This document shows positions 842 to 58,046 of a stretch of 64,000 nucleotides of DNA, piece after piece; the first letter of the stretch is position 1; every line of letters starts with the position of its first letter. The translations under genes were made by a program, and so were the position numbers. The notes under the pieces are model-generated. The model saw only the letters and a program-made list of their open reading frames with translations. It was not told the origin of the DNA and made no database searches. The stretch is from positions 3,226 through 67,225 of the forward strand of contig MFJL01000026.1 in assembly GCA_001779195.1 (NCBI GenBank), in the 5' to 3' direction. This DNA is from Candidatus Gottesmanbacteria bacterium RIFCSPHIGHO2_02_FULL_39_11 (GTDB lineage Bacteria > Patescibacteriota > Microgenomatia > 2-02-FULL-39-11).

Positions 842-865
842 TTGGTAAAGCGTTTGAGTTTATAC

Positions 866-900
866 CGCTCTTTCCGATCCCGATTTAATCGGGAGCGGAT
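866..900. repeat. nested GC-containing hairpin (ccgctc..tcccgat-ttaa-atcggga..gagcgg)
   Basis: Perfect inverted repeat tcccgat/atcggga nested in ccgctc/gagcgg, seen directly; it sits downstream of the hydrolase stop. Confidence 0.5.
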
Positions 901-903
901 TAG

Positions 904-936
904 CACTGTAAAATTTTTAAAAAAAATTTTACAGTG
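904..936. promoter_or_regulatory. 33-bp palindrome cactgtaaaa-N13(AT)-ttttacagtg, copy 1 of 2
   Basis: Perfect 10-bp inverted arms seen in sequence; a near-identical copy lies at 8290-8322 in the copper-operon promoter. It contains TGTA/TACA half sites. Confidence 0.5.
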
Positions 937-1124
937 TAAAAGAGGTTTCCCGCTAAACGATTCTTGAAAAAGAGCGCAGCATATGATAAATATGACGGAA
1001 GGACACCGTAGAAATAATCCAAAGTGTGTCGTAGTTAAACGGAGCACTAATAAGAATCTTAATCGATTGAAGCAAGGTGGTACCACGAGTTAACCTCGTC
1101 CTTGTCAAAGGAGGAGGTTTTTTT

Positions 1125-1937
1125 GTGGAAAATTCAGAAAGAAAAATACATTTAGATCAAGAAGAAACAGAGAAATTTATTTCTCAAAAAATTATTGTCA
1201 AAATCGGAAGCAGCACCATTACCGGAGGAAGAGAAGCACTGGATACTGCCTTTATATCTGATATTGCCCGCCAGATAAGCTACCTTAAAAAAAAGAATTT
1301 GAATGTGGCAATCGTCTCATCCGGAGCAGTTGCATGCGGAAAACACAGAGTTTCAAATTACGATGGGAGTATCCTCAGCCGTCAGCGTGCAGCAGCCAGA
1401 GGACAAAGAATCCTCATCCAAAAATGGGCAGATGCATTTGAAACCTATGGTATGGAAGTTGATCAAATACTGATTAATGATGACAACTTTCCTTCCGCAA
1501 AAAATCTTCTGAATTCTCTTCTTGCCGATCCTGTAGGTATTCCAATAATAAATGCAAATGACGCGGTAAGTGATCATGAGATGAAACAACTTTTAATTTC
1601 TGCCGATAATGATAGACTGGCTGGTTTTGTTGCCGGAGCAGTAGGAGCAGATACCGTATTTTTACTGAGTGATGTTGATGGAATTAAAGATAGAGAAGGT
1701 AATATTGTACCAACTATATATACTCATAATTACTCAGGAGAAAATATAATTTTTAGGGGAAGATCAGAAACCGGAACAGGAGGAATGGAATCAAAACATC
1801 AAGTTGCAATGGAATTAGCAGAGCAAAATATGAGAGTTGTCATCGGAAACGGAAGAGAAGAAAATATTCTGATAAGAGGAGCAAAGGGTGAAAGTGTGGG
1901 GACTTTATACTTCGCACCCTCCTCCACCTTGCAGTGA
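1125..1937 (+). CDS. proB: glutamate 5-kinase (ProB, no PUA domain)
   Basis: Motifs KIGSSTITGG, IVSSGAVACG, IPIINANDAVS, ADNDRLAG, GTGGMESK and VGTLY match the amino-acid kinase/ProB signature blocks. A GTG start at 1125 follows an AAAGGAGGAGG SD with 8-nt spacing; the ORF track begins at 1077. Confidence 0.8.
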   Translation: MENSERKIHLDQEETEKFISQKIIVKIGSSTITGGREALDTAFISDIARQISYLKKKNLNVAIVSSGAVACGKHRVSNYDGSILSRQRAAARGQRILIQKWADAFETYGMEVDQILINDDNFPSAKNLLNSLLADPVGIPIINANDAVSDHEMKQLLISADNDRLAGFVAGAVGADTVFLLSDVDGIKDREGNIVPTIYTHNYSGENIIFRGRSETGTGGMESKHQVAMELAEQNMRVVIGNGREENILIRGAKGESVGTLYFAPSSTLQ

Positions 1938-1946
1938 GATTTGCGT

Positions 1947-2771
1947 TTATTTTGAAGTTTTTTTACTTTCATGTTTTGCTACCTTTAGCATGAACCAAAC
2001 TAACAAGATTATCCCCATAAGAACAGCAATATCTAATAGGGGATTTGAAAGTTTTGAAGACAGGTTGAAAATAAATGTCCGAAGATTTTTGGCATAAGCC
2101 TCGTTTTCATCCATTATGATCTTATCGGTAAGCGCCATATAAGCGATAATAACTGATGACACCATAAAGAGAACACTTGCTGCCAGTTTTAAGGGTTTTT
2201 CTGTTTTGCTTTTTATCTTATACAGATACTGATTGGTAAGCTTTTCATAAAATAAGGATAGAAAAAAAAGAGGAAAGACTATTCCTAAAACGTAGACAAA
2301 TGAAACGATAAGAGAAGTAAGAATTGTCGGGGATAAGGATGATAGAGTAATTGCTGCAAATAGGACAGGGGCACAGCAGGATGAAGTAATGCCAGAAAAA
2401 AGTCCTAATACATAGGTCGAGAAAACGGTCGTTTTGGTTGGCATGGTAAAGTGAGGAAGCGGTAGCATCAGTTTGGTATCAAAAAGGGTCATTAACCCCA
2501 GAAGAAACATAAGAAGAGCTCCTAATAAGTAGGTAGTAGTATGAAACTGGTCAAACACCGAGACAATGATTTTCATGCCAAGCGCAACCGGAACGAGTAT
2601 CGAGCCTAAGCCTAGAGCGAATACTAGTGTCAGAAGAACAATCCGTTTCCTTTCCTTAAAAATAGTACCTAAATAGGAAGGAAATAAAAAAGTGATACAG
2701 CAGGGGGCAAAAAGGGCTACCATTCCGCCTAAAAAAGATGCCGTTAGTGATACTCCGAAAAGTGCAGTCAT
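1947..2771 (-). CDS. ccdA: cytochrome c biogenesis / thiol-disulfide transporter CcdA (DsbD TM-domain family)
   Basis: Polytopic membrane protein with paired-Cys motifs (APCCITF, SSCCAPV) and CcdA-like topology. It is the last gene of the copper operon. Confidence 0.55.
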   Translation of the reverse strand: MTALFGVSLTASFLGGMVALFAPCCITFLFPSYLGTIFKERKRIVLLTLVFALGLGSILVPVALGMKIIVSVFDQFHTTTYLLGALLMFLLGLMTLFDTKLMLPLPHFTMPTKTTVFSTYVLGLFSGITSSCCAPVLFAAITLSSLSPTILTSLIVSFVYVLGIVFPLFFLSLFYEKLTNQYLYKIKSKTEKPLKLAASVLFMVSSVIIAYMALTDKIIMDENEAYAKNLRTFIFNLSSKLSNPLLDIAVLMGIILLVWFMLKVAKHESKKTSK

Positions 2772-2773
2772 AA

Positions 2774-3286
2774 CTAGTTTACATTCGCCTTAACGGTAAA
2801 ATTCAACCTCGGATTATTCGGGTCATTTGTCTCCATAAACACGTCACGACTTACCTCTCCTTTAACCGGCATGATAAAAGGACGATATATAACAGATAAA
2901 GTTGCTTTCTTCCCCGGAGCAATTGTTCCAACCCATGGATTTTTGGAGTGCATGGAGAATTCAGGACTTACTTTCCCATCGATGGTTATCTGACCATAAG
3001 TACAATCACACGATGAGCTTATCTTAAAAAGGGAAAGAGGTTTCAGGCCGTTATTAACGATCGTAAATTCTGCAGATTTCTCATCTTTAACATTCATATT
3101 TCCTAGATCGGAAAAGAAAGATGATACGCTCGCCTCCGGCTTCTCTTTATCGTTTGCTCTGTAACTGGTTATATTGGAAGCTGCCTGGCTCTGTTTTCCT
3201 TCATTAATGGAAAAAAGAACAATGAGTACCAAAAGAAGCACGGTAATTCCGCCAATAATGTAAAAAACTAGCTTGTCCGTACCCAT
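2774..3286 (-). CDS. DUF1573-like membrane-anchored beta-sandwich protein
   Basis: N-terminal TM helix followed by a soluble domain with an SCDCT motif resembling the DUF1573 SCGCT signature. The assignment is inferred from memory of that family. Confidence 0.35.
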   Translation of the reverse strand: MGTDKLVFYIIGGITVLLLVLIVLFSINEGKQSQAASNITSYRANDKEKPEASVSSFFSDLGNMNVKDEKSAEFTIVNNGLKPLSLFKISSSCDCTYGQITIDGKVSPEFSMHSKNPWVGTIAPGKKATLSVIYRPFIMPVKGEVSRDVFMETNDPNNPRLNFTVKANVN

Positions 3287-3288
3287 AT

Positions 3289-6246
3289 TTACTTTCCGGA
3301 GCTGACTCGGACATTTGACATCGGTTTTTCAGGTGTTGCCATGGTTGAGCTAATTTTGGCAAATCCGGCAAAGATTAAACTAAAAATAATAATCATGACA
3401 GTAGGAGCAATAAATGATAGGTAGTTTCTGCGGTGCGGCTGAAAATAGCGTAGAGTCAGAGAATTACTAACCACTGATACAGACGACAAGGCCATAGCAA
3501 GTCCGGCAAGTTCCGGTTTGAGCACCAGTCCGGCAAATGCCAGCGCTCGTGCTGCAACCGGAATTCCAATCACATTGTAAAACAGGGCAAAGAACATATT
3601 CTGTTTGATTTTACCCATCGTTTCTTTTGATAAGTTAATTGCTGTCGCGACATCTCTTAAATCATTTTTTACAATGACAATTCCCCCCGCTTCCATAGCC
3701 ACATCGGTTCCAGAACCCATAGCAATTCCTAAATCTGCTTGTGCTAGAGCCGGAGCATCATTAATACCGTCTCCGACCATGGCAACCGTCTTACTTTGTT
3801 CCTGAAGTTTCTTCACCTCGCTTGCCTTATCCTGAGGCAATACTTCTGCAAGAACATTGGTTATTCCTAATTGTTTGGCTATAGCTTCTGCCGTTTTCCG
3901 GTTATCGCCCGTTATCATATAGACAGCTATATTCTTTGCTGTTAGTTTTTGAATGGCTTCCCGGGATGTCTCTTTGAGAGTATCCGCAACGGCAACAGTA
4001 CCTATAATTTCTTTGTTGTTGGAAAGAAGCATTACCGTTTTTCCTTGTTCCTCAAGTCGTACTACTTTTCTGTCGACTCTATCAATTGGTAAGCCGACAA
4101 CATCAGTTGTCAGTTTTCTATTTCCAAAATAATACGTTTCACCGTTAATAACCCCTTGTACTCCGTGTCCGGCAATTGCCTTAAACTGCTCGACTCCGGA
4201 TGTTTTTATCGATTCTTCATTTGCATAAGTTACGATTGCCTCAGCCAAAGGATGCTCAGAAGAACGCTCAAGACTTGCTGCAAGAGAAAGAACATCGTTC
4301 TCATCAAAGTCAGAAAAGCAATCGACGTCAGTAACTACAGGCTTACCGTTTGTCAGTGTGCCCGTCTTATCAAAAATTACAACATTCACCTTACAAGCCT
4401 TTTCAAGCGGCTCACCGCCTTTTATTAATATGCCGTGTTCAGCACCTTTTCCGGTTCCTACCATAAGAGCGGTTGGAGTTGCCAGTCCCAACGCGCATGG
4501 ACAGGCGATGACTATCACTGCCGTAAATGCCATAAGTGCATAGGAAAGCGGTGCACCGATTACAAAAAACCATACAACAAAGGTAAGAAGTGCAATCGCA
4601 ATTACAGCCGGGACAAAGTATGCTGATATTTTATCGGCGAAAGCTTGAATAGGAGCTTTGCTTCCTTGAGCTTCTTCAATAAGTCTGATTATCTGAGACA
4701 ATGTTGTTTCCGATCCCACACGGGTTGCTTCAAATTCAAAACTGCCCATCTTATTCATAGTAGCGCCAATAACTGTATCACCAATATTTTTCTCAACCGG
4801 GATACTTTCACCGGTTACCATGGACTCGTCAATACTTGATGAACCCTTTATTATTTTCCCGTCAACTGGTATCTTTTCACCCGGTCTAACCAAAATAACA
4901 TCTCCTTTAACTACTTCATCAATCGGTATATCTAGCGTTTGATTGCCGCGCACCACTCGTGCAGTTTTTGCCTGAAGACCCATCAGCTTTTTTATGGCGT
5001 CTGATGTCTGTCCTTTAGCACGAAGTTCGAGCCATTTTCCTAAAAGAACAAAGGTAATAAGAAATGCCGCTGTTTCAAAATACAGTTCAGGAATTTTTTC
5101 TCCGTTTAGACCAATAAATGAACCGGTCCTAAGACTGTAGAATAGAAAATTATAGATACTGTATAGAAATGCAGTTGACGTTCCGATTGCTATAAGACTG
5201 TCCATATTAAACGTCTTCATACGAAGAGCAGATATCATTCCTTTATAGAAACTGTTTCCTAAGAAGATTTGGACCGGTGAGGCAAGAAGAAAAGAGATAG
5301 CTCCTACATACGGAAGTAAAATAGTCTTTCCCGGAATGAAAGGGAAGAAGTCAAAAAGCATAAAGTAGAGCATGGGAAAACTTAGCACAAAACCCATAAT
5401 GAATTTATTACGGGCTTTTTTTATTTCTTTCTGCCTTTTTTTTGACTCGAAAGTAGCATCTTTCTGATTGACAATTTCCGCTTTATATCCTGCTCTCTCC
5501 ACGGCCTTAATCAGTAAGTCAACAGACGTTTTTGCTAGGTTAAAATCAACGAGAGCTTTTTCTGCCGCGAAGTTGACATTTGCCTGCGATACGCCATCTA
5601 CTTTTTTTAAGGATCTCTCGATAATTGCCGCACAGGAGGAACAGTGCATCCCTGAAAGGGATAGATTGACTCTTGTAGTTTGAGATGCAATATTTTCCTG
5701 TTTTTGTATGCTTTTATTTTCTCTATCTTTCCCAATTTCAGGTGTATTTGCAGAAGATGTGATTCCGTCAAAAAGTCTGATTACATCAAGTGAAGAGACA
5801 AGATTCTCTAAATACTCCTTAGACGTTTTTTGATTTTCCGGAACAGATACCTTTACTTGGCGGTTGTTCTTGAGCACTCCTTCAAAATACGATTTACCTT
5901 CAGGATCTTGTCGTACTTTTCCTTCGGCTACGATTTCCGATTCCAATGAAAACTTAAGAGGTTTTCCTGTTGGAATAACTTCTTGCTCTATATTCATTCC
6001 ATTTCCCAATACAGCATTCCCATTTCCGTTACTTTCAACTTTCGCTTCATATCCGGCACGAGCAATGGCAGAAACAATATTCCGTAATGATCCGTCATTA
6101 TCATCTGCTACCAGACTGGCAGCACCTGTTTTATGATCGATGGATCTCACCTGTACCCCAGGAATTTCCGACAGTTCATCTTTAATAAGAGCTTCACATG
6201 AACTACAATGCATTCCCGAGATAGTAAAGTTTATGTTTGTTGTCAT
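3289..6246 (-). CDS. copA: copper-translocating P1B-type ATPase with multiple N-terminal HMA domains
   Basis: HMA motifs GMHCSSC (x2), TM CPC motif [11 protein letters not shown], phosphorylation site FDKTGTLT, hinge [10 protein letters not shown]; 985 aa. Confidence 0.9.
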
Positions 6247-6249
6247 ATC

Positions 6250-6465
6250 TTATGCTTCTAAAACGGTATAGGGCATACCCGACAGTGCAGTGATAATATC
6301 GGACACTTTCAACTCATTGCTGCTTGTTATCGTCGTTTCTCCGTTATTGTTTTTAATCGCCACATCTGTAACTCCTGTAAGCCTTCCCACTTTTTTCTTA
6401 ATCAATTTGACACAAGCTTCGCAGGTTATCCCTGAAATTTTTAAAGTTAAAGTGTAATTATTCAT
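6250..6465 (-). CDS. copZ: copper chaperone (HMA domain protein, CopZ-like)
   Basis: 71 aa with GITCEACV metal-binding motif; its start overlaps copA. Confidence 0.8.
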   Translation of the reverse strand: MNNYTLTLKISGITCEACVKLIKKKVGRLTGVTDVAIKNNNGETTITSSNELKVSDIITALSGMPYTVLEA

Positions 6466-8228
6466 AGAACTTTGATAACTCCCCGTGGTACACCCATTGC
6501 ACAGGTAATAGGATAATTTCCTTTTCCATTCGGGGTGAAATTGAAGGTAATTGTTTTACCTTTCGCCAAATATTGAGGATCATCTACCAGTCTTGGAATA
6601 GTTATGGTTCCCATGCACCCCGACCCGTTATCTTTAACATCTATTTCCATCCTTACCGGTGTTCCAGCTTTTACAGAAAACTCATTAGGAGAAATATCCC
6701 GGTCAGCAGTATATGTTGTTTTTATAACCTGTACGGCACCTTCCCGTTTTGCTTCTTGGGCAACAACGGGTTGTTGGACAGCTTGTTTTGCCCCTCCTCC
6801 ACAACCGCAACCGCCCGTCCCGCATGATACTCCGCTTTTTGCCGGCGGTGCCTGCGCAACTGCATCCGTACTTTTTTCAACTACATTAAAAACTCCCGTA
6901 TACATGCCCATACTGCATGAGAAAGGCAATCTTCCAACGTCTGTTGGGGTAAATTCTATGGTATTGTCACCTAATTCAAGATTTTTCCGTATGCCAAGGC
7001 GGGATATAATGATGGCACTGGCACACGTATTAGAATCAGTTGAGTTGATTTCCCATTTCACCGGAACATCTTTTACGACAGTAAATATATTCGGATTATA
7101 TCCGTTTGCCGACTGCGTCATCTTAACGACTTGAAAACCATCCACAATAGTATTGACAGAAGATGCAGCCAATACATTCTGATTAGAAGAAAAAAGATAT
7201 GCAGGAGATAATCCCATCAAATTTAATCCGTTTTGAGCATTGAAAAACGCTAGTATTGTAACGACAACACCGGCAAATTTGAAGAATTTTTGGGCAAAAT
7301 ATCCTTTGATGACGGATGTCACTCCTCCGACACCTAATAATCCGGGAGCAGTACCCAAAGCAAAAATACCCATGATGGTGGCCCCTCTGATAAAACTGCC
7401 GCTACTCATAGCCAAAAGCTGCATCGCTTGGGTAAAACCGCAGGGAAGAAAAAAAGTCAATCCGCCCAGGATGAATGCATTTTTATGACTGTATTCTTTA
7501 TTCTGCTGCTCTTTTATCCCCAACGCCTTACTTATTCCTGTTGGAAGAGTGAAATGGGCATTGCTGATCCTGGGAAACAGTCCGGTAAGTTGCAATCCGA
7601 GCATCAACATAACCAGAGCTACTCCCAAGGTAAGAAGACCTAAACCAAAGCCAGATAGCTGAAAAAATGATCCGATTAGGCCAATAACACCGCCCAGTAT
7701 TACGTAAGAGGTGATTCTTCCGAAATTAAAAAAAAGATGGGGTTTAAATTTTTCATACACTGATGCATTAGGATTTTTTTCTGAAAAACGGGCAGATACC
7801 CCAAGCACCAGACCTCCCACAAGCGCCATGCAGGTAGAGAGACCTGCGGTTATTCCTATCAGGAATATGGGTATCAGACCGGACGGACGGGAAATAGAAG
7901 TACTGAATAATTTGTTTAAACCAAATATATCGACAAGAATAAAAAGAAAGGAAAGCACAATAACTGAAATGATAATATCTTTGTAGTCATTAATGTTTTT
8001 AGAAAAAAGCGGTTTTTCCTCCTCGTAACCAACTTGATACCCTGCCCGCTCTACTGACTGTATAATTGTGCCATCATTTAAGTAGTTTTCGTGATAAAGT
8101 TCTGCACATTTTTTCCGCTGGGAAACGGTAACTTTTTTCACTCCGGGGATGTCTTTTAATTCATCCTCAATTAAAAGTTCGCAGGATCTGCAGTGCATTC
8201 CTTGAATTGGAACAGTAGTGATTCTCAT
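6462..8228 (-). CDS. fusion protein: N-terminal HMA domain, polytopic permease-like membrane domain, Cys/Gly-rich linker, two C-terminal cupredoxin-like domains
   Basis: N-terminal GMHCRSC HMA motif; ~8 predicted TM helices (TauE/SafE- or CcdA-like); GCGCGGG linker. Two tandem beta-rich repeats end in C..M motifs (SCSMGM, TCAMG) reminiscent of cupredoxin/CopC-like copper sites. Confidence 0.5.
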   Translation of the reverse strand: MRITTVPIQGMHCRSCELLIEDELKDIPGVKKVTVSQRKKCAELYHENYLNDGTIIQSVERAGYQVGYEEEKPLFSKNINDYKDIIISVIVLSFLFILVDIFGLNKLFSTSISRPSGLIPIFLIGITAGLSTCMALVGGLVLGVSARFSEKNPNASVYEKFKPHLFFNFGRITSYVILGGVIGLIGSFFQLSGFGLGLLTLGVALVMLMLGLQLTGLFPRISNAHFTLPTGISKALGIKEQQNKEYSHKNAFILGGLTFFLPCGFTQAMQLLAMSSGSFIRGATIMGIFALGTAPGLLGVGGVTSVIKGYFAQKFFKFAGVVVTILAFFNAQNGLNLMGLSPAYLFSSNQNVLAASSVNTIVDGFQVVKMTQSANGYNPNIFTVVKDVPVKWEINSTDSNTCASAIIISRLGIRKNLELGDNTIEFTPTDVGRLPFSCSMGMYTGVFNVVEKSTDAVAQAPPAKSGVSCGTGGCGCGGGAKQAVQQPVVAQEAKREGAVQVIKTTYTADRDISPNEFSVKAGTPVRMEIDVKDNGSGCMGTITIPRLVDDPQYLAKGKTITFNFTPNGKGNYPITCAMGVPRGVIKVL

Positions 8229-8289
8229 AAAATATCTATACCCATCTTACTCAGGTTTGCAACTAGAATAGTTGCAATAGCTCACTTAG

Positions 8290-8322
8290 CACTGTAAAAT
8301 TTTTTAAAAAAAATTTACAGTG
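8290..8322. promoter_or_regulatory. palindrome cactgtaaaa-AT-ttttacagtg, copy 2, ~65 nt upstream of the copper operon start
   Basis: Near-identical to 904-936. It is followed upstream by a second perfect palindrome tactgaaaaa-ggcg-tttttcagta (8336-8359) and a direct repeat ttttcagtatat (8351-8362, 8393-8404). Confidence 0.55.
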
Positions 8323-8639
8323 TAAAATGGGTTTATACTGAAAAAGGCGTTTTTCAGTATATATGCTGGAAAAACATATTTCAACCTCGAGTTTTTTCAG
8401 TATATTAGGTAATTTTAGTAATAACGACTATCTTACCAATACAGTTATTAAGATTTTATGAGTACCGGGCACAAAAAATTTATTCGTATTATTTCCTTTC
8501 CTTTTTCGTGATCTCCTTGGCGAAATAAATGATACCGAGAATAAGAAAAACAATAACTAATAACCATATCAGTGAACCAAATATTCCCCAGCCAGACATC
8601 ATATTTGAGTAATATCCCATCATAATAAGCCACCTCCTT

Positions 8640-11487: not shown

Positions 11488-11606
11488 ATAAATTCCTCAG
11501 GACACATAGGGCATATATATATAATTCCACAGTAATTTTATTATACCTTAGAGGATTTAAGGATTTTGCTGATTCTTGGGTAGAGAATAGGACACTTTCC
11601 ATATTT

Positions 11607-12353: not shown

Positions 12354-12372
12354 TTACTACAATTAGTAGTAA
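12354..12372. promoter_or_regulatory. palindrome ttactac-aatta-gtagtaa immediately upstream of blaI/copY-like start
   Basis: Perfect 7-bp arms; ends 6 nt before the ATG at 12378. It shares the ACTAC/GTAGT core with the 13763-13781 palindrome. Confidence 0.5.
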
Positions 12373-12377
12373 CCTAT

Positions 12378-12758
12378 ATGTTTCAAAAAACACTAAGCCC
12401 TCTGGAACAAGAGATTATGACTATTGTTTGGGAACTGAAGAAGTGCTCTGTTCGGGATGTTATGGAGCAACTTAACCGGGAGAAAAAACTTGCGTATACA
12501 ACGGTTGCCACACTGCTTCAGCGCTTGTTTGAAAAGGGTCTTGTCCAGAGAGGCAGTCGAGGTACAGTACTTTCCTACATACCTAAAGTTTCCAAGGAAC
12601 TATACAGCAAAAGAACGGCTAAGTCGTTTATGCGAACGTTTGTGTCTTCTTTTGGGGAAACAGCTATCGCTTCGTTTGCCGAGTCTATTGACAAACTGCC
12701 AAAGGACAAAAAGGATTATTTGTTGCAGCTGTTGGAAAAACAAAATGAGGATAAATAA
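12378..12758 (+). CDS. BlaI/MecI/CopY-family winged-helix transcriptional repressor
   Basis: The N-terminus (LSPLEQEIMTIVWELKKCSVRDVMEQL...KLAYTTVATLLQRLFEKGLVQR) matches the penicillinase-repressor family. It has no C-terminal Cys cluster, so it is BlaI-like rather than classical CopY. Confidence 0.8.
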   Translation: MFQKTLSPLEQEIMTIVWELKKCSVRDVMEQLNREKKLAYTTVATLLQRLFEKGLVQRGSRGTVLSYIPKVSKELYSKRTAKSFMRTFVSSFGETAIASFAESIDKLPKDKKDYLLQLLEKQNEDK

Positions 12759-13731
12759 GCATTTGTTCATTTTTTCAAGTTTATTATTTCTTCTGACTGC
12801 GAGTTATTTTTTTGTTTTAGTGAAGTTTTTTCCACTACTGGTACACCATACCTTTTATTACTGTCAAGAAATGGCAAAGGTAATATCTTTGAGCCTTCCG
12901 GGGAACTGGGGAGTTGTTGTCTTTGGGATATTAATTATTTCGGTTCTTTACACCGCATTCAAATTATTTGCTACCATCGTTCAAGTTTATAAGTTTCGTC
13001 AGTTGTTGTCCCGATCCATTGTCAAGAATCATGAACTTTCAGATATTTTCAAATCTCTCAAGCTTGTAGATAAAGTGGTCGTATTACATGAAACTAAGCC
13101 ATTTGCATATTGTTTTGGAGTAAGAAACCCAAAAATCTTTATTACTATTGGTTTAATTGCAATGGTTAATAGAAAGGAACTTGAGGTTATTTTACGCCAC
13201 GAAAAGTATCATCTGGAACATCGGGATAACCTAATTTTACTGGTAGCAACATTTATTGAGTCTCTATTCCCTTTTTTCCCAATACTTACGGACCTTATCC
13301 GTATTTACAAGACAGATCGGGAATTACTAGCAGATCAGGCTGCTATCCATAGAGAAGCAGATAAACATTCCCTTTCGTCTATTTTGAAAAAACTCCTTCA
13401 ATATGAACCCGTAACACTACCTGCATTGGCTCCCGCAATTGCTGATGTTGATACACTTGAGACTCGTATAAAATCATTGCTTTCAATTAAAGTAGATTAT
13501 CCTAAGCTAGGAAAAAGAAATTCGCTTCTCAGTATAATTTCCATTGCCGCACTCATGGCGCTTATGAGAACTTCTGTACATGCAGTAGAACTTCATAGGG
13601 ACGGCTTGGATATAATGATAGTCTGTAATGGAAATGTCAGCTGCGAATCTGTCTGTAAAGACCGCAACTTGATCAAATCGCAAAGTATCAGCTCTTCGTA
13701 CACTTCTAAAAACTTCTCCGCAAACAACTGA
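12745..13731 (+). CDS. M56-family (BlaR1-like) membrane metalloprotease / antirepressor without a penicillin-binding sensor domain; His/Cys-rich extracytoplasmic tail
   Basis: HEXXH motif (RHEKYHLEHRD) between TM helices. An in-frame ATG at 12745 overlaps the repressor stop by 14 nt. After the last TM the C-terminus reads HAVELHRDGLDIMIVCNGNVSCESVC. Confidence 0.7.
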   Translation: MRINKHLFIFSSLLFLLTASYFFVLVKFFPLLVHHTFYYCQEMAKVISLSLPGNWGVVVFGILIISVLYTAFKLFATIVQVYKFRQLLSRSIVKNHELSDIFKSLKLVDKVVVLHETKPFAYCFGVRNPKIFITIGLIAMVNRKELEVILRHEKYHLEHRDNLILLVATFIESLFPFFPILTDLIRIYKTDRELLADQAAIHREADKHSLSSILKKLLQYEPVTLPALAPAIADVDTLETRIKSLLSIKVDYPKLGKRNSLLSIISIAALMALMRTSVHAVELHRDGLDIMIVCNGNVSCESVCKDRNLIKSQSISSSYTSKNFSANN

Positions 13732-17466: not shown

Positions 17467-18864
17467 TTAAGTACCGGGAAAGGATATAGATACTGTGGTA
17501 CCATGTTCTACTTTGCTGTCGATATCTATTTTCCCGTGATGTGAGGAAATGATAGCCTGAGCAATCGCAAGACCAAGCCCGGAGCCTGAAGCTTTCTCAT
17601 TCTTTGACGCTCTATAAAACCGTTCGAAAATATGGGGCAGATCTTTTTTAGCAATTCCAGTGCCATTGTCTTTTATCTCTACATGAACCAGATTCCTTAT
17701 CTTATGTAACATAATGGTAACTGTTCCATTCTCGTGTGTGTACTTCATTGCGTTATCAACAATATTTAGTATGGCATGGAATAATTTATCTCTTTTCCCG
17801 TGTATTTTAATATCCGGCGCGGTTTCTCCGGTAATTTTAATATTTTTAGAAGAAGCCATTTTTGTCGCCAGTTCGCGGATTTCCTCCAGAAGCTCTGAAA
17901 GATCAAAAACTTCAAAATGAGCAGTAACATCCGCTTCTGACCACGCAAGATCCAAAATGTTTTCCAGCGTTTGCGACATTCTTTTATTATCGATAAGTGT
18001 TTCATCCAAAGCCTTTATATACTCATTTTTTCCTCTCTCTTTTAAGCGTATAATCTCGATATTGCTTCTTTGGGTAGCCAGAGGAGTTTTCAGTTCATGG
18101 GCTACATCTCCAATAAATTGCCGTTCCCTTTTAAATGCCGAATTTAACCGGTCCAAAAGACTGTTAAAAGTTACTGCTAATTCTTTAATCTCGTCATTAG
18201 TGTCGGGAGTATCTACTCGTTCATCAAGATTTTCGTGGCTTATCTTTTTCAGTTTTTCAGAAATGGATGCGATGGGTGCAATCGCGCTTTTGGCGAGAAG
18301 GTATCCCCCAAAAACAGTCGGCAATAAAAATACTACAAAAACGGCTCCAAGTATCAGGAGTAAATTGTTTAGAGAGTTTTCAATCACGTCAATCGGATGA
18401 CCGACAAACACAACCCCATACAACTGATTGTTTTTATAGATGGGGTCAATCCAGAAACGCATTCTAAGATCAGAAATAGTGTGATCTGTAATATGAGGGG
18501 ATTTTGCCGTCGCGGCTTGTTCAAAAAGTTGAGATAGTTTTTTATCGGATCGGTTAACGGTAACGGAACTGCCTACAATATTGCCGGTACTATCCATCAA
18601 AATTACAACCATTCCAGGAATATCGCTAAACTCAGAAAGAAAAGCATTTCGTGCCATCATCTGACATGTTTGACAGGATAGGTTCCCTTCTTTTGTGATC
18701 ACTTCAACAATCGAATTTCCGTGTGATTTAAGTGTTGCATCCGTTTGTGAATATAGAGTGTTTTTTGTAATGAGATAAAAACTGGCAAAAATGACTAGAG
18801 ATGCTATAAAAAAGGCAAGGGAATACCAAACCGTTAGACGAAATCTGACACTTCTCGTATTCAT
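17467..18864 (-). CDS. sensor histidine kinase (CusS/CopS-like)
   Basis: Two TM helices flanking a periplasmic domain containing CQTCQMM, then HAMP, HisKA H-box (HELKTPLA) and HATPase N/G boxes (DNGTGI, GSGLGL). Confidence 0.85.
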   Translation of the reverse strand: MNTRSVRFRLTVWYSLAFFIASLVIFASFYLITKNTLYSQTDATLKSHGNSIVEVITKEGNLSCQTCQMMARNAFLSEFSDIPGMVVILMDSTGNIVGSSVTVNRSDKKLSQLFEQAATAKSPHITDHTISDLRMRFWIDPIYKNNQLYGVVFVGHPIDVIENSLNNLLLILGAVFVVFLLPTVFGGYLLAKSAIAPIASISEKLKKISHENLDERVDTPDTNDEIKELAVTFNSLLDRLNSAFKRERQFIGDVAHELKTPLATQRSNIEIIRLKERGKNEYIKALDETLIDNKRMSQTLENILDLAWSEADVTAHFEVFDLSELLEEIRELATKMASSKNIKITGETAPDIKIHGKRDKLFHAILNIVDNAMKYTHENGTVTIMLHKIRNLVHVEIKDNGTGIAKKDLPHIFERFYRASKNEKASGSGLGLAIAQAIISSHHGKIDIDSKVEHGTTVSISFPGT

Positions 18865-19535
18865 ATTGATTCACTTATTTTATATCCGACACCGTGCAGG
18901 GTATGGATAAGTTTAACTTTCGCTCCTTTATCTACCTTACGCCTGATTGCAGCAAGAAAAACATCTACAACATTGCTCATGCTGTCAAAGTTATAGTCCC
19001 AGACATGTTCAATGATCATGGTTCGTGAAACAACTTCATCTTTATGACGGAGTAAAAGTTCCAGGACTGAAAATTCCTTAGGAGTAAGGGTAATAGGTTT
19101 TCCATTTCTTGTTAATAGATGTTTAATCGGATCCAGTTCCAAATCGGCAACACTTAGCGTGGGTGATGATTCCCCTTTACTGCGTCTTATAAGTGCGTGT
19201 ATTCGCGAGCGAAGTTCCAGATAGGCGAAAGGTTTTGTAATATAATCATCTGCTCCGCTATCAAGGCCGATAACTTTCTCTTCAAGCGTAGCACGGGCAG
19301 TGAGCATAAGGATTGGAGTTTTAATATTTTTCTTACGAAGTTCTTTGCAGATGGTTATCCCATCTGCTTTTGGCAGAGTTATATCCAATATAATAAGATC
19401 ATATTCTTCAGATTCTGCAAGATATTTTCCTTCTTCCCCATCATAAGCGATATCTACAGCAAATCCTTCTTCCGTAAGACCTTTTTTGACTACATTTGCA
19501 AGGCGCCTCTCATCTTCTACAAGAAGTATTCTCAT
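18861..19535 (-). CDS. OmpR-family response regulator (CusR/CopR-like)
   Basis: Receiver domain (MRILLVEDE, DLIILD) plus winged-helix trans_reg_C; it overlaps the kinase gene by 4 nt. Confidence 0.9.
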   Translation of the reverse strand: MRILLVEDERRLANVVKKGLTEEGFAVDIAYDGEEGKYLAESEEYDLIILDITLPKADGITICKELRKKNIKTPILMLTARATLEEKVIGLDSGADDYITKPFAYLELRSRIHALIRRSKGESSPTLSVADLELDPIKHLLTRNGKPITLTPKEFSVLELLLRHKDEVVSRTMIIEHVWDYNFDSMSNVVDVFLAAIRRKVDKGAKVKLIHTLHGVGYKISESI

Positions 19536-24029: not shown

Positions 24030-24204
24030 ACATTTATTATATACTACTTTTCATTTTTTTTGTTTTAGTCATCGCTTGATCAATTAATATATCAACAAAA
24101 AAGGATAAAAACATAAATCCTAAAATCCTCCACCCTCCAGGTGGGGATGACTATTAGGGTCTATTTCTCACCCAACTAACAAGAAATATTGTACCGTATA
24201 GTTG

Positions 24205-24582
24205 CTAAGTCATACGATAAATATATGCATCTTCGATGAAGTAGTTATTAATCGTATTTTTAGAAAATCTGATACCAGAAATAGCAGTTCTTCCGGTACT
24301 TATAGCTTTTTTTAGCATAACTACTAAATTGTTATTGGGACTTACTACAGATATGTCCTTAAGGGAAATAATATTATTTCCAAGATAACTCTGGATGTCC
24401 TGGTAAACCTTTAAAGGTCCTTCTTCGTCAACTCTGGAGGAAGATATGACATATTTCCAACTATCAGAATTTTGATCATAGAACCACATAGCTGCATTAA
24501 CAGGAAATTTTTTTGAATCTAAGTTTTTCAATAACGTTTTACCCTCCGTTATGTATTTATCTACCAATATTTTTGTATCCAT
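24205..24582 (-). CDS. hypothetical protein, downstream partner of HEPN-domain gene
   Basis: 125 aa; overlaps the HEPN gene by 22 nt; no nucleotidyltransferase GSxDxD motif. Confidence 0.3.
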   Translation of the reverse strand: MDTKILVDKYITEGKTLLKNLDSKKFPVNAAMWFYDQNSDSWKYVISSSRVDEEGPLKVYQDIQSYLGNNIISLKDISVVSPNNNLVVMLKKAISTGRTAISGIRFSKNTINNYFIEDAYIYRMT

Positions 24583-24977
24583 TGCAATACTCCTTTCCTT
24601 GAATCAGTGATTGATAGGATCATGTCTTCTGCTTTTTTTCGTTGGTGCTGTTCATAACGAGCATTTTCTGACCAATCCTTAGCAACACCCCAATAGGTAT
24701 CGAATGTCTTATCTGCTTTTATCTGGTTATTAAGTTTTATTTCTAGCCCTGCTCCTTTTATCAGTTTTTCCAACTCATGTGTGTAGATGTTGTCAAGTGA
24801 TTTTCTGTCTAAAGGGAAATCGCCTTTCCTCGTTTTTCTAGCTATGCATGCTTTAAGTGCACACTCGATTACATATCCACTAATATAATACGCTCCCGAA
24901 TAATGACCCTTTTTTAGAAGAATTTGTGCTTCTTTTAATCGTATCGTTGATAGTTTTTTAAAGAGTAATCTATTCAT
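24561..24977 (-). CDS. HEPN-domain protein
   Basis: GYVIECALKACIA helix and overall 4-helix pattern of the classical HEPN domain; 138 aa. Confidence 0.5.
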   Translation of the reverse strand: MNRLLFKKLSTIRLKEAQILLKKGHYSGAYYISGYVIECALKACIARKTRKGDFPLDRKSLDNIYTHELEKLIKGAGLEIKLNNQIKADKTFDTYWGVAKDWSENARYEQHQRKKAEDMILSITDSRKGVLQWIQKYW

Positions 24978-25162
24978 AGAATTAAAAAAATAGATTCAAA
25001 TACATTTTAACATATCCGTGAAAGAGTGAGACTTTCCGAAGTGTTCACGTTGTTGATGTGATGGTCAAACTTAGGTATACCCAATCAAATCCTCTACCCT
25101 CCAGGTGGAAATGATAATCTTTTCTTCCATATTATTTTCACCCTTGCTCTGAGTGAGCTGTA

Positions 25163-26212
25163 TTACCTTTCTATGTAATCGTCATTTTTCATCGAAGGAT
25201 CAAGATCAACATAAAAATTTCTTTCCCAGGCATGATGTTTCAATTTTTCCATAAGTTGACCTGTTAATTTACGACCATCCGAAACGGATGCATTATCATC
25301 GACATATTTTACTTTTCTTGTTCCGGGGATAACTGTGGAAATTTCATCAAAAGAAAGTATCCAACGAAGAGCTAATTCCGGTAAAGTTTTTGCCTCGTTT
25401 CCTAAAAGTTTTTCAAGTTTTTTAATTCTTGGGATAAGTAACTTTAATCGTTCCTCACTAAAATATTTTGATCTCATATCGTCGTTAAACTTGCTTTCTA
25501 GTGTAAGTTTTCCGGTTAAACCTCCTTCGTCTCGTGGTACTCGAGCAATTAAACCGACGTTATGCTTTTTGGCAAATGGCAGAAGTTTTTCTGTAGGTTT
25601 TTGGTGAAAAATATTAAAAATAAATTGTATAGTACCAATTAAGCCTGTTTCTAAAGTTTTGAAACAGTTACTTGGTTGGTAATCGTTAATAGAAATTCCC
25701 CAGTATTTTACTTTCCCCTTTTTTGTAATACTCTGTATTTCTGATTTCCAGTCATCCTCTTCCACAAACTGATCTTGCCAGACGTGGAATTGCATGAGAT
25801 CAAGCGAGTCAATCTTTAAACTCTTTAGAGAACTATCAACCATTTTTTCAATATAACCTTTTGGAAATACTTCTGAAATCGGCACACCTCTCCATGCTGG
25901 CCATTTGCGGTTTTTACCGGGAATCTTGGAGGCGATAATTATCTTTTCTCTGTTACCCGACTCTTTAATAAACTTACCGATCAATTCTTCTGAACAATGT
26001 TTTCCTTGTTCATCACCTGGTTCATCAACTCTACCATAAACCCAAGCCGTATCTATAAAATTGCCTCTTAGCTCAACGAAACGATACAATGCTCTCATGC
26101 TTTCATTTTCATCCGGCGCATCCCAACCCCATGGTTTGCCCGCAAGTTGCCATGTACCCATACCAACTTCCGAAACTCGTAATCCTGTTTTACCAAGTGT
26201 TCTGTATTTCAT
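25163..26212 (-). CDS. aldo/keto reductase family oxidoreductase
   Basis: N-terminus YRTLGKTGLRVSEVGMGTW plus typical AKR length and (alpha/beta)8 pattern. Confidence 0.8.
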   Translation of the reverse strand: MKYRTLGKTGLRVSEVGMGTWQLAGKPWGWDAPDENESMRALYRFVELRGNFIDTAWVYGRVDEPGDEQGKHCSEELIGKFIKESGNREKIIIASKIPGKNRKWPAWRGVPISEVFPKGYIEKMVDSSLKSLKIDSLDLMQFHVWQDQFVEEDDWKSEIQSITKKGKVKYWGISINDYQPSNCFKTLETGLIGTIQFIFNIFHQKPTEKLLPFAKKHNVGLIARVPRDEGGLTGKLTLESKFNDDMRSKYFSEERLKLLIPRIKKLEKLLGNEAKTLPELALRWILSFDEISTVIPGTRKVKYVDDNASVSDGRKLTGQLMEKLKHHAWERNFYVDLDPSMKNDDYIER

Positions 26213-26233
26213 ATTTTTATCTTAGTATATTCA

Positions 26234-26316
26234 AATCCTCCAAAACCCTCCACCCTCCAGCCAAAACCCTCCAAAAACCCTCCACCCAAACCCTCCACCC
26301 TCCAGGTGGAAATGAG
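26234..26316. repeat. C-rich degenerate tandem array (AAACCCTCCA-like units, ~6 copies) ending in hairpin cctccaccctccaggtgg; G-rich on the minus strand
   Basis: Seen directly. The minus strand reads GGAGGGTGGAGGGTTTGGGTGGAGGGTTTTTGGAGGGTTTTGGCTGGAGGGTGGAGGG with at least 8 GGG tracts. Single-unit copies of the terminal hairpin lie at 24123-24144 and 25087-25108, each just 3' of a minus-strand gene. Confidence 0.7.
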
Positions 26317-26348: not shown

Positions 26349-26422
26349 TGGCTGCCCAGCTTGGATTCGAACCAAGATACCATCCTCCAGAGGGACGTGT
26401 CCTACCGTTAGACGACCGGGCA
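26349..26422 (-). tRNA. tRNA-Gln (anticodon CUG), CCA encoded
   Basis: Hand-folded cloverleaf: acceptor TGCCCGG/CTGGGCA, D-arm GTCT..GGAC, anticodon stem CGTCC/GGATG with loop CTCTGGA, T-arm CTTGG-TTCGAATC-CCAAG, and 3' G-CCA. Confidence 0.75.
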
Positions 26423-29375: not shown

Positions 29376-29466
29376 TGTCATTCATAACTTCATGTGCGAT
29401 CAAACATAGACTCCCGCCTTCCCATAAAAACTCTAACGAGTTTTCAGGGTAAACGCGGGAATGACA
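29376..29466. repeat. palindromic intergenic repeat, family A module (TGTCATTC ... GGGTAAACGCGGGAATGACA), inverted orientation
   Basis: The same ~55-nt core recurs at 52741-52797, 55583-55635 and 57927-57985. Confidence 0.7.
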
Positions 29467-29470
29467 TCTC

Positions 29471-43393: not shown

Positions 43394-43494
43394 TGTCATT
43401 CCCGCGAAGGCGGGAATCCAATCATTTAGATAAAAATACTAATAATAAAACTTATTTATTAAGGAGTGGATCCCGGGTCAAGCCCGGGATGACA
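43394..43494. repeat. composite palindromic repeat (TGTCATTCCCGCGAAGGCGGGAATCC ... GGATCCCGGGTCAAGCCCGGGATGACA) between secD and secF
   Basis: Two hairpin modules with an AT-rich spacer fill the 117-nt secD-secF gap. Confidence 0.7.
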
Positions 43495-43500
43495 CCATAT

Positions 43501-47524: not shown

Positions 47525-47631
47525 ACGACTTACTATGTAAGTCGTCATCCTGAACTTGATTCAGCCTGCCTGCCGGCAGGCAGGGATCCAGAAATTAACT
47601 AACTGGATTCCGGGTCAAGCCCGGAATGACA
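47525..47631. repeat. composite palindromic repeat (hairpin acgacttac/gtaagtcgt; GTCATCCTGAAC...; cctgcctgcc/ggcaggcagg; GGATTCCGGGTCAAGCCCGGAATGACA)
   Basis: Several perfect hairpins concatenated, seen directly. Confidence 0.7.
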
Positions 47632-47843
47632 ACATATGCCCTTCATTTTCTGTGTCCGGTGTCAGACAAAGCGGGATGATCCTAATGCACAAAAAGTTAT
47701 AATGAAAAATAAGCGTCCGGCTCTTAAAGGAAAATGCCCGGTCTGCGGGGCAACCTTGTTTCAGTTGGGAGGATAACCAAGATATTGAAGAAAAGAATTC
47801 AATAATATATTTAATCCTAATTCAGCTAATATAATTTTTTGAA

Positions 47844-52734: not shown

Positions 52735-52740
52735 ACATAC

Positions 52741-52826
52741 TGTCATTCCCACGTTTACCCTGAAAAGTTCGCTTTTTAGGGAAGGCGGGAATCCATCCTG
52801 GATCCCGGATCAAGTCCGGGATGACA
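52741..52826. repeat. composite palindromic repeat (family A + family B modules) between leuC and leuD
   Basis: TGTCATTCCCACGTTTACCCTGAAAAGTTCGCTTTTTAGGGAAGGCGGGAATCC + TGGATCCCGGATCAAGTCCGGGATGACA. Confidence 0.75.
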
Positions 52827-52836
52827 AATAATATAT

Positions 52837-53424: not shown

Positions 53425-53445
53425 TTATCATCTAAAAAATATTCA

Positions 53446-53471
53446 GATCCTGAAACAAGTTCAGGATGACA
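53446..53471. repeat. palindromic repeat, family C (GATCCTGAAACAAGTTCAGGATGACA) between leuD and leuB
   Basis: Perfect hairpin ATCCTGAAC/GTTCAGGAT; the same unit recurs at 59205-59231. Confidence 0.7.
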
Positions 53472-53477
53472 TAAGAT

Positions 53478-55512: not shown

Positions 55513-55635
55513 TGTCATCCCCGACCAGATCGGGGATCCACTCATTAATAAATAAGTTTTATTCTAAGATTTTTTAAGGATTGGATTCCCGCCTGCCCTA
55601 AAAAGCGAATTTTCAGGGTAAACGCAGGAATGACA
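55513..55635. repeat. composite palindromic repeat (family D + inverted family A) between ilvE and ridA
   Basis: Seen directly. Confidence 0.7.
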
Positions 55636-55659
55636 AAATATTAAATATTTGTAATTAAC

Positions 55660-57916: not shown

Positions 57917-57926
57917 ATGTTTTCTC

Positions 57927-58046
57927 TGTCATTCCCGCGTTTACCCTGAAAAATTCGCTTTTTAGGGCAGGCGGGAATCCATCGATGGATCCCGGGTCTC
58001 GGAACAATTCTGTCGAATTTTCCGAGTAAACAAGCCCGGGATGACA
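57927..58046. repeat. composite palindromic repeat (family A + expanded family B) between ilvC and thrC-like gene
   Basis: Seen directly. Confidence 0.75.

Follow-up and report, generated by a model that had tools for sequence, protein, structure and literature searches.

Paired palindromes beside the copper and proB genes of a Gottesmanbacteria bacterium are probably modules of a short TATA-flanked mobile element

A 33-nucleotide (nt) palindrome occurs twice in a 64-kb stretch of DNA (the window) from a Candidatus Gottesmanbacteria bacterium (candidate phyla radiation, Microgenomates) of Rifle groundwater: once upstream of proB (glutamate 5-kinase) and once just before the first gene of a copper (cop) operon. 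Our analysis indicates that each palindrome is probably the central hairpin module of a short non-coding element resembling a miniature inverted-repeat transposable element (MITE), and not a copper operator. The two copies are referred to as element A (865–979, next to proB) and element B (8241–8400, next to the cop operon). Comparison with related loci, labelled by L-numbers (L001, L069, L070 and so on, the retrieved comparison loci and contigs), establishes that both palindromes sit, as internal modules, within a short insertion element whose insertion duplicates TATA. It also shows that what cop promoters conserve is not this element but a different box.

The pattern CACTGTAAAA-N13-TTTTACAGTG is found in the window at 904–936 and 8290–8322 and nowhere else. 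A pattern search permitting up to three mismatches returned these two sites from the 64 kb and no match from 100 shuffled sequences. A first-pass annotation of this DNA had described both as 33-bp palindromes with perfect 10-bp arms. Its coordinates are correct; the arms of copy B (CACTGTAAAATTTTTTAAAAAAAATTTACAGTG) form nine perfect pairs, with a single mismatch relative to the 10+10 pattern, and those of copy A (CACTGTAAAATTTTTAAAAAAAATTTTACAGTG) are longer, with 15 perfect nt on either side of a 3-nt loop. The two copies had also been called near-identical, and the similarity in fact extends further than claimed, as both palindromes lie inside a 49-nt direct repeat (900–948 and 8286–8334, 92% identical, same orientation; repeat family D12). 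A second palindrome reported at 8336–8359 is present and slightly longer (8334–8361), with 12-nt arms TATACTGAAAAA (8334–8345) and TTTTTCAGTATA (8350–8361) that are 100% complementary around the loop ggcg. The direct repeat described beside the copper operon is likewise found, as TTTTTCAGTATAT at 8350–8362 and 8393–8405. Copy B begins 62 nt before the ATG of the first cop gene (8228, minus strand), in agreement with the earlier estimate of ~65 nt, and the copy at 904 does lie upstream of proB, between an S9-type hydrolase gene (ending at 841) and the proB start codon (GTG 1125). As a half-site, CACTGTAAAA shows no enrichment across the window (9 observed against 5.8 expected).

The nature of the element is most clearly seen in contig L069, which belongs to a Roizmanbacteria genome of another site. 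Here, the element block (5329–5498) is positioned upstream of rpsB-tsf, inside the -10 box of the rpsB promoter, with its orientation relative to the downstream gene opposite to that in the window. The corresponding empty site is provided by L111, which encodes an RpsB 95% identical to that of L069. In L111 only 45 nt separate the upstream gene from rpsB, the promoter reads TTGAAC-17-TATAAT and a single TATA is present (...CCCTTGAACATTGAGGGGCTCGTTGT TATA ATGTTAACTTATG). The filled site in L069 reads ...CTCGTTGT TATA (~164 nt, TACCCATCTTAC...GGTTTTTTTAG) TATA ATGTTAACTTATG (alignment A4). The block is also absent from the relatives L112 and L113. The presence of TATA on both sides in L069, compared with the single TATA of L111, demonstrates at the level of sequence comparison an insertion within the -10 box of rpsB, accompanied by a 4-bp TATA target-site duplication. 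At the L069 junction, a TTGCAA contributed by the element lies 16 nt from the TATA, such that TTGCAA-16-TATAAT stands in place of the interrupted rpsB promoter. The filled-site and empty-site comparison supports one of two suggestions made by the first-pass annotation, namely that the repeated palindrome marks a small mobile or regulatory cassette.

Element B is homologous to the L069 block over its full length (nhmmer E 1.6e-11; alignments A2 and A6). Its surroundings were compared with three orthologous cop operons (L070, L071 and L072), the first protein of which is 84, 78 and 76% identical to that of the window. The 33-nt palindrome is absent from the promoters of all three (3/3). It falls within a stretch of about 165 nt present in the window and missing from these orthologues. 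Compared with L070, the window contains ~166 extra bases between the conserved promoter and the ATG, with TATA at both ends (alignment A5), which is consistent with a TATA target-site duplication. In silico deletion of 8241–8404 leaves a 37-nt leader that can be aligned with the 35-nt leader of L070. L071 contains a 74-nt relative of the element (TATA/CCCTTCTTAC...GTTTCAG/TATA) that abuts the upstream edge of the cop promoter box; given that both its position and its orientation differ from those in the window, this represents an independent insertion. Family members vary in length (115 nt for A, 160 nt for B, ~164 nt in L069 and 74 nt in L071), start with CC(C/G)NTCTT, finish with YAG and are flanked by TATA (TATA/CATA for copy A). 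A profile search of the retrieved loci revealed no family members beyond A and B in the window, L069 and L071.

Neither element A nor element B contains a credible open reading frame (ORF), merely short overlapping ORFs with rare start codons. As RNA, both are predicted to fold strongly (-50.5 kcal/mol, z -5.2 for A; -52.8 kcal/mol, z -5.8 against shuffles for B), and the family profile matches element A with E 1.9e-27. The ends of element A are partly complementary (866–873 CGCTCTTT with 969–976 AAAGAGCG; inverted repeat I8) and pair in the fold; its right flank, CATA at 980–983, is an imperfect copy of TATA. In element B, the terminal inverted repeat (TATACtgaaaaaaCTCgAGGTT versus TATACccatcttaCTC-AGGTT) is imperfect, and the ends again pair in the fold. 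The L069 counterpart of the element B core hairpin is CACTGGAAA...TTTCCAGTG, a compensatory change. A unit related to the element, lacking the 33-nt hairpin, is located at L001 10909–10961, 2.6 kb outside the window and before another P-type ATPase gene; L001 10923–10961 contains a module homologous to the inner hairpin of element A, also without the 33-nt palindrome. Directly adjoining this unit (L001 10961–10985, ~2.6 kb before the window start), we observed TATACTGAAAAG 2 nt before the ATG of that ATPase. Should its TATACT act as a -10 box, the ATPase mRNA would be leaderless. The TATACTGAAAAA unit seen in this segment occurs three times in element B.

Both elements have promoter-like sequences at their ends. 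The outward site on the plus strand of element B ends in TATATT (8401–8406), i.e. the duplicated TATA followed by TT; it is oriented against the conserved promoter and faces away from the cop genes. Its equivalent in L069 is the TTGCAA-N16-TATAAT before rpsB. The minus strand carries TTGCAA (8262–8257), followed after N16 by TATAGA (8240–8235), with the A of the ATG (8228) 6 nt further on; by analogy with L069, we infer that this could constitute a putative promoter. At element A, TTGAAA (964–969) lies inside the element, the TG of the extended -10 just outside it and the remaining hexamer further into the flank. This putative promoter faces the proB leader and could serve proB.

We propose that the element would be moved in trans by some transposase, with an insertion preference for TATA, i.e. 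for -10-like sequences. In the long form, a -35-like hexamer lies 16 nt from the duplicated TATA at both ends, and insertion into a -10 box might thereby rebuild a promoter at the junction, a property that would account for the tolerance of copies within promoters. The internal CACTGTAAAA-type hairpins are presumably selected for self-complementarity, folding in single-stranded DNA or RNA. At the copper operon, element B may give rise to a ~195-nt structured leader transcribed from the copper-regulated promoter, to which it would contribute ~165 nt, or may partially replace that promoter with its own outward -35.

Several observations weigh against this interpretation. No empty site is available for copy A, as the closest proB homologue is 54% identical and 10/10 population contigs carry the element, and the duplication at copy A is imperfect (TATA/CATA). 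The terminal inverted repeats are weak, with ~13–14 of 22 positions matching in B as read from sequence and fold. In the source population only two copies are seen, plus the one related unit 2.6 kb outside the 64-kb window. There is no transposase among those window proteins scanned against Pfam, a scan that covered part of the proteins and included no search aimed at a transposase or an autonomous partner. The evidence for promoter rebuilding is restricted to hexamer spacing. Lastly, related hairpins at tRNA 3' ends (see below) have retained orthologous positions, their stems being conserved and their loops free to vary; this suggests that the hairpin has a cellular function in addition to mobility.

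The promoter that element B separates from the cop genes is itself conserved. A block, TACTCATAAAATCTTAATAACTGTATTGGTAAGAT, is common to L070, L071 and L072, 12–37 nt before the ATG, and the window copy (8463–8430) lies outside the element. The first half of the block is a box (TCATAAAATCTTAA, then T/C) located ~10 nt before an extended -10, an arrangement that the window, L070 and L072 have at both the cop operon and the response-regulator operon. Ahead of the response-regulator genes, TCATAAAATCTTAA is at about the same distance from TGTATAAT or TGTTATAAT. Sharing of one box by the cop operon and the operon of the regulator itself, as seen in three genomes, would be expected of a CopR-type activator site, and the box TCATAAAATCTTAAT is therefore likely to be a putative site of a CopR-type response regulator. 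The copper operon is most likely controlled by this conserved site further upstream, and not by the palindrome; TCATAAAATCTTAAT with its extended -10, shared with the response-regulator operon, is a better operator candidate than the stacked dyads. Boxes of the OmpR family (CopR/CusR-type) are the closest match for the conserved cop promoter, although not for the palindrome: the 15–16-nt length of the box, its placement relative to the extended -10 and its occurrence at both the target operon and that of the regulator are alike, whereas TCATAAAATCTTAAT differs from the known proteobacterial CopR/CusR box. A degenerate version of the TCATAAAATCTTAA box may also precede the cation-efflux/ATPase operon, near 11540–11570.

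Table 1. Positions of the elements, their modules, promoter features and neighbouring genes in the window, and of tRNA-end hairpins in other contigs.
Feature	Position	Strand	Remark
TATA left of element A (putative target-site copy)	861–864	+	same TATA/CC junction in element B, L069 and L071
Element A, 115 nt, non-coding, CCGCTCTTTCC...AAAGAGCGCAG	865–979	+	right end ...GCGCAG (979)
G+C-rich inner hairpin of element A, TCCGATCCCGATT/AATCGGGAGCGGA	873–899	+	inverted repeat I3, 13-nt arms, 92%
49-nt core of element A	900–948	+	contains palindrome 904–936 (inverted repeat I1)
Possible promoter over right end of element A: TTGAAA 964–969, 17 nt, TGaTAAATA 984–992	964–992	+	read from sequence
TATA, cop start-codon side of element B	8237–8240	+	
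Element B, 160 nt, non-coding, CCCATCTTAC...GAGTTTTTTCAG	8241–8400	+	between conserved cop promoter and ATG
Palindrome TTGCAACTA-gaa-TAGTTGCAA	8257–8277		inside element B (inverted repeat I13)
49-nt core of element B	8286–8334	+	shared with element A; contains palindrome 8290–8322
Second hairpin module of element B, TATACTGAAAAA ggcg TTTTTCAGTATA	8334–8361		homologous to second CACTGTAAAA...TTTTACAGTG hairpin in L069
Outward promoter-like site of element B: TTTCAA 8379–8384, 16 nt, TATATT 8401–8406	8379–8406	+	
Second TATA flanking element B	8401–8404	+	
Conserved cop promoter block TACTCATAAAATCTTAATAACTGTATTGGTAAGAT	8430–8463	minus	conserved in L070, L071, L072; outside element
Putative response-regulator box TCATAAAATCTTAATA	8461–8446	minus	inside conserved cop promoter block
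Extended -10 TGgTAAGAT	8438–8430	minus	end of conserved cop promoter block
Same box, TCATAAAATCTTAACC	19574–19559	minus	plus TGTATAAT 19551–19544, upstream of OmpR-type response regulator
S9-type hydrolase gene	ends 841		before copy A
proB (glutamate 5-kinase)	GTG 1125		after copy A
HMA/DsbD_2/cupredoxin fusion gene	ATG 8228	minus	first of cop operon
cop genes	8228 to 1947	minus	fusion gene, then copZ, 985-aa P-type ATPase, DUF1573 protein, 274-aa protein
OmpR-type response regulator gene	18861–19535		with histidine kinase 17467–18864
Contigs with tRNA-end hairpins	L031 860–2290; L074, L075, L079, L081, L085, L086, L091, L095, L098, L100		

The alternative that survives best regards the hairpin as a functional RNA-level signal of Microgenomates, either a terminator without a U tract or a hairpin of 3'-end formation, processing or stability; it is compatible with the mobile-element interpretation, and we consider it possible but rather unlikely. 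The copies at 904 and 8290 would then end or insulate transcripts from, for example, the S9 hydrolase gene and the upstream ATPase/44-aa unit. Scans of genome and metagenome collections located the same stem in other low-G+C contigs of candidate-phyla-radiation type. Among the 39 distinct tRNA genes in the retrieved loci, 17 encode no CCA and have a CAC...GTG hairpin that begins at the final tRNA bases, with TAAAC(A/C)C after it. This fraction is inflated, as the loci were retrieved via the motif; 9/17 hairpins do not match the search pattern, however, and hence represent independent cases. For tRNA-Arg(tcg) in L086, L091 and L100, hairpin stems are conserved while loops differ. Other family hairpins abut tRNA 5' ends (GGGTTTA-CCCTGTAAAT...ATTTACAGGG), and at L031 1976–2076 one pair of arms encloses a whole tRNA-Pro.

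The stems themselves display covariation. Variant pairs include CACCGTAAAA/TTTTACGGTG, CACTGAAAAA/TTTTTCAGTG, CCCTGTAAAT/ATTTACAGGG and TACTGAAAAA/TTTTTCAGTA. Compensatory changes were found in 6 of 10 stem pairs (24 cells), a result reached by 0/500 shuffles; the set of stem pairs was anchored on the 3' TAAAC plus A-run and chosen by bimodal pairing, which makes the percentage of paired cells a partly circular measure. Compensatory differences also separate the hairpins of element B from their L069 homologues, and loop length is free (3–24 nt). Compensatory changes together with a free loop length imply that self-complementarity is what is kept, which fits a hairpin in single-stranded DNA or RNA and not phased protein half-sites.

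The location of copy A, after the hydrolase gene and in the same orientation as in the tRNA cases, would suit an RNA signal. Against it, the A+T-rich stem has no U tract and is followed by TAAAA/CTAA, and neither copy was listed by the intrinsic-terminator scan. The genome does use canonical terminators, such as that at 1093–1124 with seven T. With copy B positioned after the conserved cop promoter, strong termination there would silence the operon. Furthermore, the window tRNA gene at 26349–26422 encodes its CCA and has no such hairpin. A canonical intrinsic terminator was rejected as a candidate for either palindrome, neither of which has the G+C-rich stem and U tract.

A wider form of this idea, which we regard as tentative and on balance doubtful, is that the CACTGTAAAA-type hairpin is a lineage-wide Microgenomates signal (for tRNA transcript ends or processing, or a protein site) that has been captured by TATA-targeting mobile elements as self-insulating cassettes. 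The signal would act without a U tract, precisely where CCA-less tRNA genes have their 3' end, or would be the recognition site of a dedicated protein. The captured hairpin, combined with outward -35 boxes, would let the cassette stop incoming transcription and rebuild the promoter it had interrupted. If true, the copper operon of the window would be partly uncoupled from its response-regulator promoter.

The other suggestion made by the first-pass annotation, a shared regulator, would have one transcription factor, CopY/BlaI-like or other, regulate the copper operon together with proB, with the palindrome as its operator. This appears very unlikely. The palindrome is a perfect dyad near two gene starts, its TTTACAgTGTAAA resembles a TACA/TGTA box, and a BlaI-like repressor with a BlaR1-like sensor is encoded at 12378–13731; the likeness to CopY/BlaI/MecI operators (cop box TACAnnTGTA) therefore consists of a TACA...TGTA dyad by a copper operon with a Penicillinase_R-family regulator nearby. 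The TGTA/TACA core ascribed to BlaI/CopY boxes is indeed present, but its spacing is not theirs: the TACAgTGTA core has a 1-nt spacer compared with 2 nt in CopY/BlaI boxes. No TACANNTGTA is found at either site, with the sole TACANNTGTA of the window at 37670. The dyad is not conserved in the three orthologous cop promoters; its position is inside an insertion, on the downstream side of the conserved promoter. This block is also found upstream of rpsB in another lineage, and related hairpins at tRNA genes; the motif is thus present at loci unrelated to metal genes, an outcome the first-pass annotation itself had named as one that would speak against a role in metal regulation. Arm variants change on both sides, preserving pairing and not a fixed half-site sequence, and loops of 3–24 nt do not maintain half-site phasing. 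The BlaI-like gene (12378–12758) has a different dyad upstream, TTACTACaattaGTAGTAA.

Even less likely is the proposal that the ~100–170-nt blocks are structured cis-regulatory leader RNAs (riboswitch-like) that sense a signal common to cop and proB. Although strong multi-hairpin folds are predicted and the blocks lie 5' of genes, they have no Rfam match at either threshold, are absent from the orthologous cop leaders and differ in orientation to the downstream gene between the window and L069, where the block is upstream of the rpsB promoter and would fall outside the rpsB mRNA; proB, moreover, already has its own T-box-like leader. The chance of an assembly or binning artefact due to repeat-induced chimeric joins is negligible: the end of Logan contig L001 falls within the second palindrome and L109 begins immediately behind copy A, but de Bruijn assemblers are expected to break contigs at hairpins, and the reproduction of both loci, with identical sequence across the junctions, in independent assemblies of the same population (B: L002, L003, L083; A: L001, L101–L107) argues that the duplication is not such an artefact.

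Other candidate functions of the palindrome were considered and set aside. A sigma-70 promoter formed by the arms (TTTACA/TAAAAT) has unsuitable spacing to flanking hexamers at both copies. By eye, a sigma-54 site lacks the required GG/GC pair, and the spacing does not suit a LexA-like CTGT...ACAG box. A DNA-uptake-sequence-like 10-mer was discarded as the 10-mer is not enriched in the window. Scanning the genome collection for CACTGTAAAAN{12,16}TTTACAGTG gave 66 scattered single matches in unrelated phyla, mostly due to chance, and yielded L031 and L069. In viral collections the hairpin pattern had no match, and a viral match to CAGTGTAAAATGGGTTTA (L115) was dismissed as chance in a G+C-rich context. 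A literature search by topic or sequence string found no description of such repeats in Patescibacteria; the matches to sequence strings were apparently primers or other unrelated sequences.

Beyond the cop promoter, the window encodes a 44-aa membrane ORF (8489–8623), a second ATPase and a cation-efflux gene, and the island continues with the BlaI-like repressor and BlaR1-like protease (12378–13731), a DsbA-like protein and a multicopper oxidase. The 44-aa ORF (8489–8623, minus strand) has a hydrophobic core (MMGYYSNMMSGWGIFGSLIWLLVIVFLILGIIYFAKEITKKERK) and a strong ribosome-binding site, is located between the second ATPase and the cop promoter, and has a similar counterpart in L070. The palindrome TTACTACaattaGTAGTAA (12355–12373) lies directly upstream of the BlaI-like gene, which is followed by the BlaR1/M56-like gene, and is probably the operator of that repressor itself. 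The T-box-like leader before proB (996–1127, plus strand) matches Rfam RF00230 at 37.1 bits (E 7.6e-07, 401-nt search), below the gathering score of 93, and stem I and the specifier codon were not identified. It contains GGUGGUACC at 1076–1084 and a canonical terminator, ACCUCGUCCUU...AAGGAGGAGGU with seven U (1093–1124), which holds the ribosome-binding site before GTG 1125. To our knowledge, T-box leaders have not been described in candidate-phyla-radiation bacteria.

Additional repeats were observed. In L074 (5560–5870), two tandem partial copies of the tRNA-Thr 5' half precede the intact gene, each with a CACTGTAAAG-type stem plus TAAA between GGTA and GAGC of the D-loop; the hairpin of the first copy is truncated. 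An initial reading of this region as a tRNA with a hairpin intron in the D-loop was rejected, as hairpin removal gave no tRNA call and the region is a tandem partial duplication. A palindromic intergenic repeat family in the window, GTCATTCCCGCGTTTACCCTGAAAAnTTCGCTTTTTAGGGCAGGCGGGAATCC, occurs at 29405–29470 (minus), 52740–52797, 55590–55650 (minus) and 57926–57983, and its inner hairpin, GTTTA-CCCTGAAAA, is of the same stem family. A further palindromic intergenic family, TGGATCCCGGGTCAAGCCCGGGATGACA, is found at 43467–43500, 47604–47637, 52799–52832 and 53444–53477. Another Gottesmanbacteria genome (L027 5806–5866) has a CACTGTAAAA hairpin between 13-nt imperfect direct repeats (TAGAGGAACTGAA / TAGAGGAGGTGAA), the second of which is the ribosome-binding site of the next gene. 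Repeated CCTCCACCCTCCAG-type units occupy 24116–26315 (families D4 and D5), with a short run just downstream of the tRNA-Gln gene at 26349–26422.

The assignment of the palindromes to a probable mobile element removes a false lead, as the stacked dyads before the copper operon are not its operator. It also documents, through comparison of an empty with a filled site, that candidate-phyla-radiation bacteria, whose genomes are very small, harbour a small mobile element. Its targets are -10 boxes, and it appears to carry a -35 of its own; promoter, operator or small-RNA prediction in these genomes will need to mask such elements. The tRNA-end hairpins are an unexplained feature of gene expression in uncultured bacteria.

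With regard to known systems, the element is MITE-like and belongs to Microgenomates; its kind is already known, with Correia, BOX and BIME elements the closest analogues. It is short and non-coding, and a target-site duplication is evident from filled versus empty site (L069 versus L111). Dispersed copies comprise two in the 64-kb window, the related unit 2.6 kb outside it and others in two further genomes in other contexts. Correia elements (CREE/NEMIS) of Neisseria are ~100–160 bp, non-coding, and insert at TA-containing targets with duplication, often next to promoters. Their ends contain -35/-10-like sequences that can drive neighbouring genes, and they form hairpins when co-transcribed. 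The elements described here share this small non-coding form, a TA-type target with duplication, putative promoter-forming ends and predicted hairpin folding, but show no sequence similarity to Correia elements, reside in a candidate-phyla-radiation host and have a 4-bp (TATA) duplication, weak terminal inverted repeats and variable hairpin modules (74 to ~164 nt). BOX elements of Streptococcus pneumoniae and REP/BIME elements of enterobacteria are modular mosaics of short palindromic units in intergenic DNA, and resemble our elements in the variable number of internal modules and strong predicted secondary structure. REPs have a 5' GTAG, are tied to RAYT transposases and occur in hundreds of copies, whereas the flanks here are TTAG or GTTTA and 2–3 copies are seen in the 64-kb window and adjoining DNA, where no RAYT search was made. 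We know of no demonstrated target duplication for BOX elements; the elements of Microgenomates differ from these in that a target duplication is shown.

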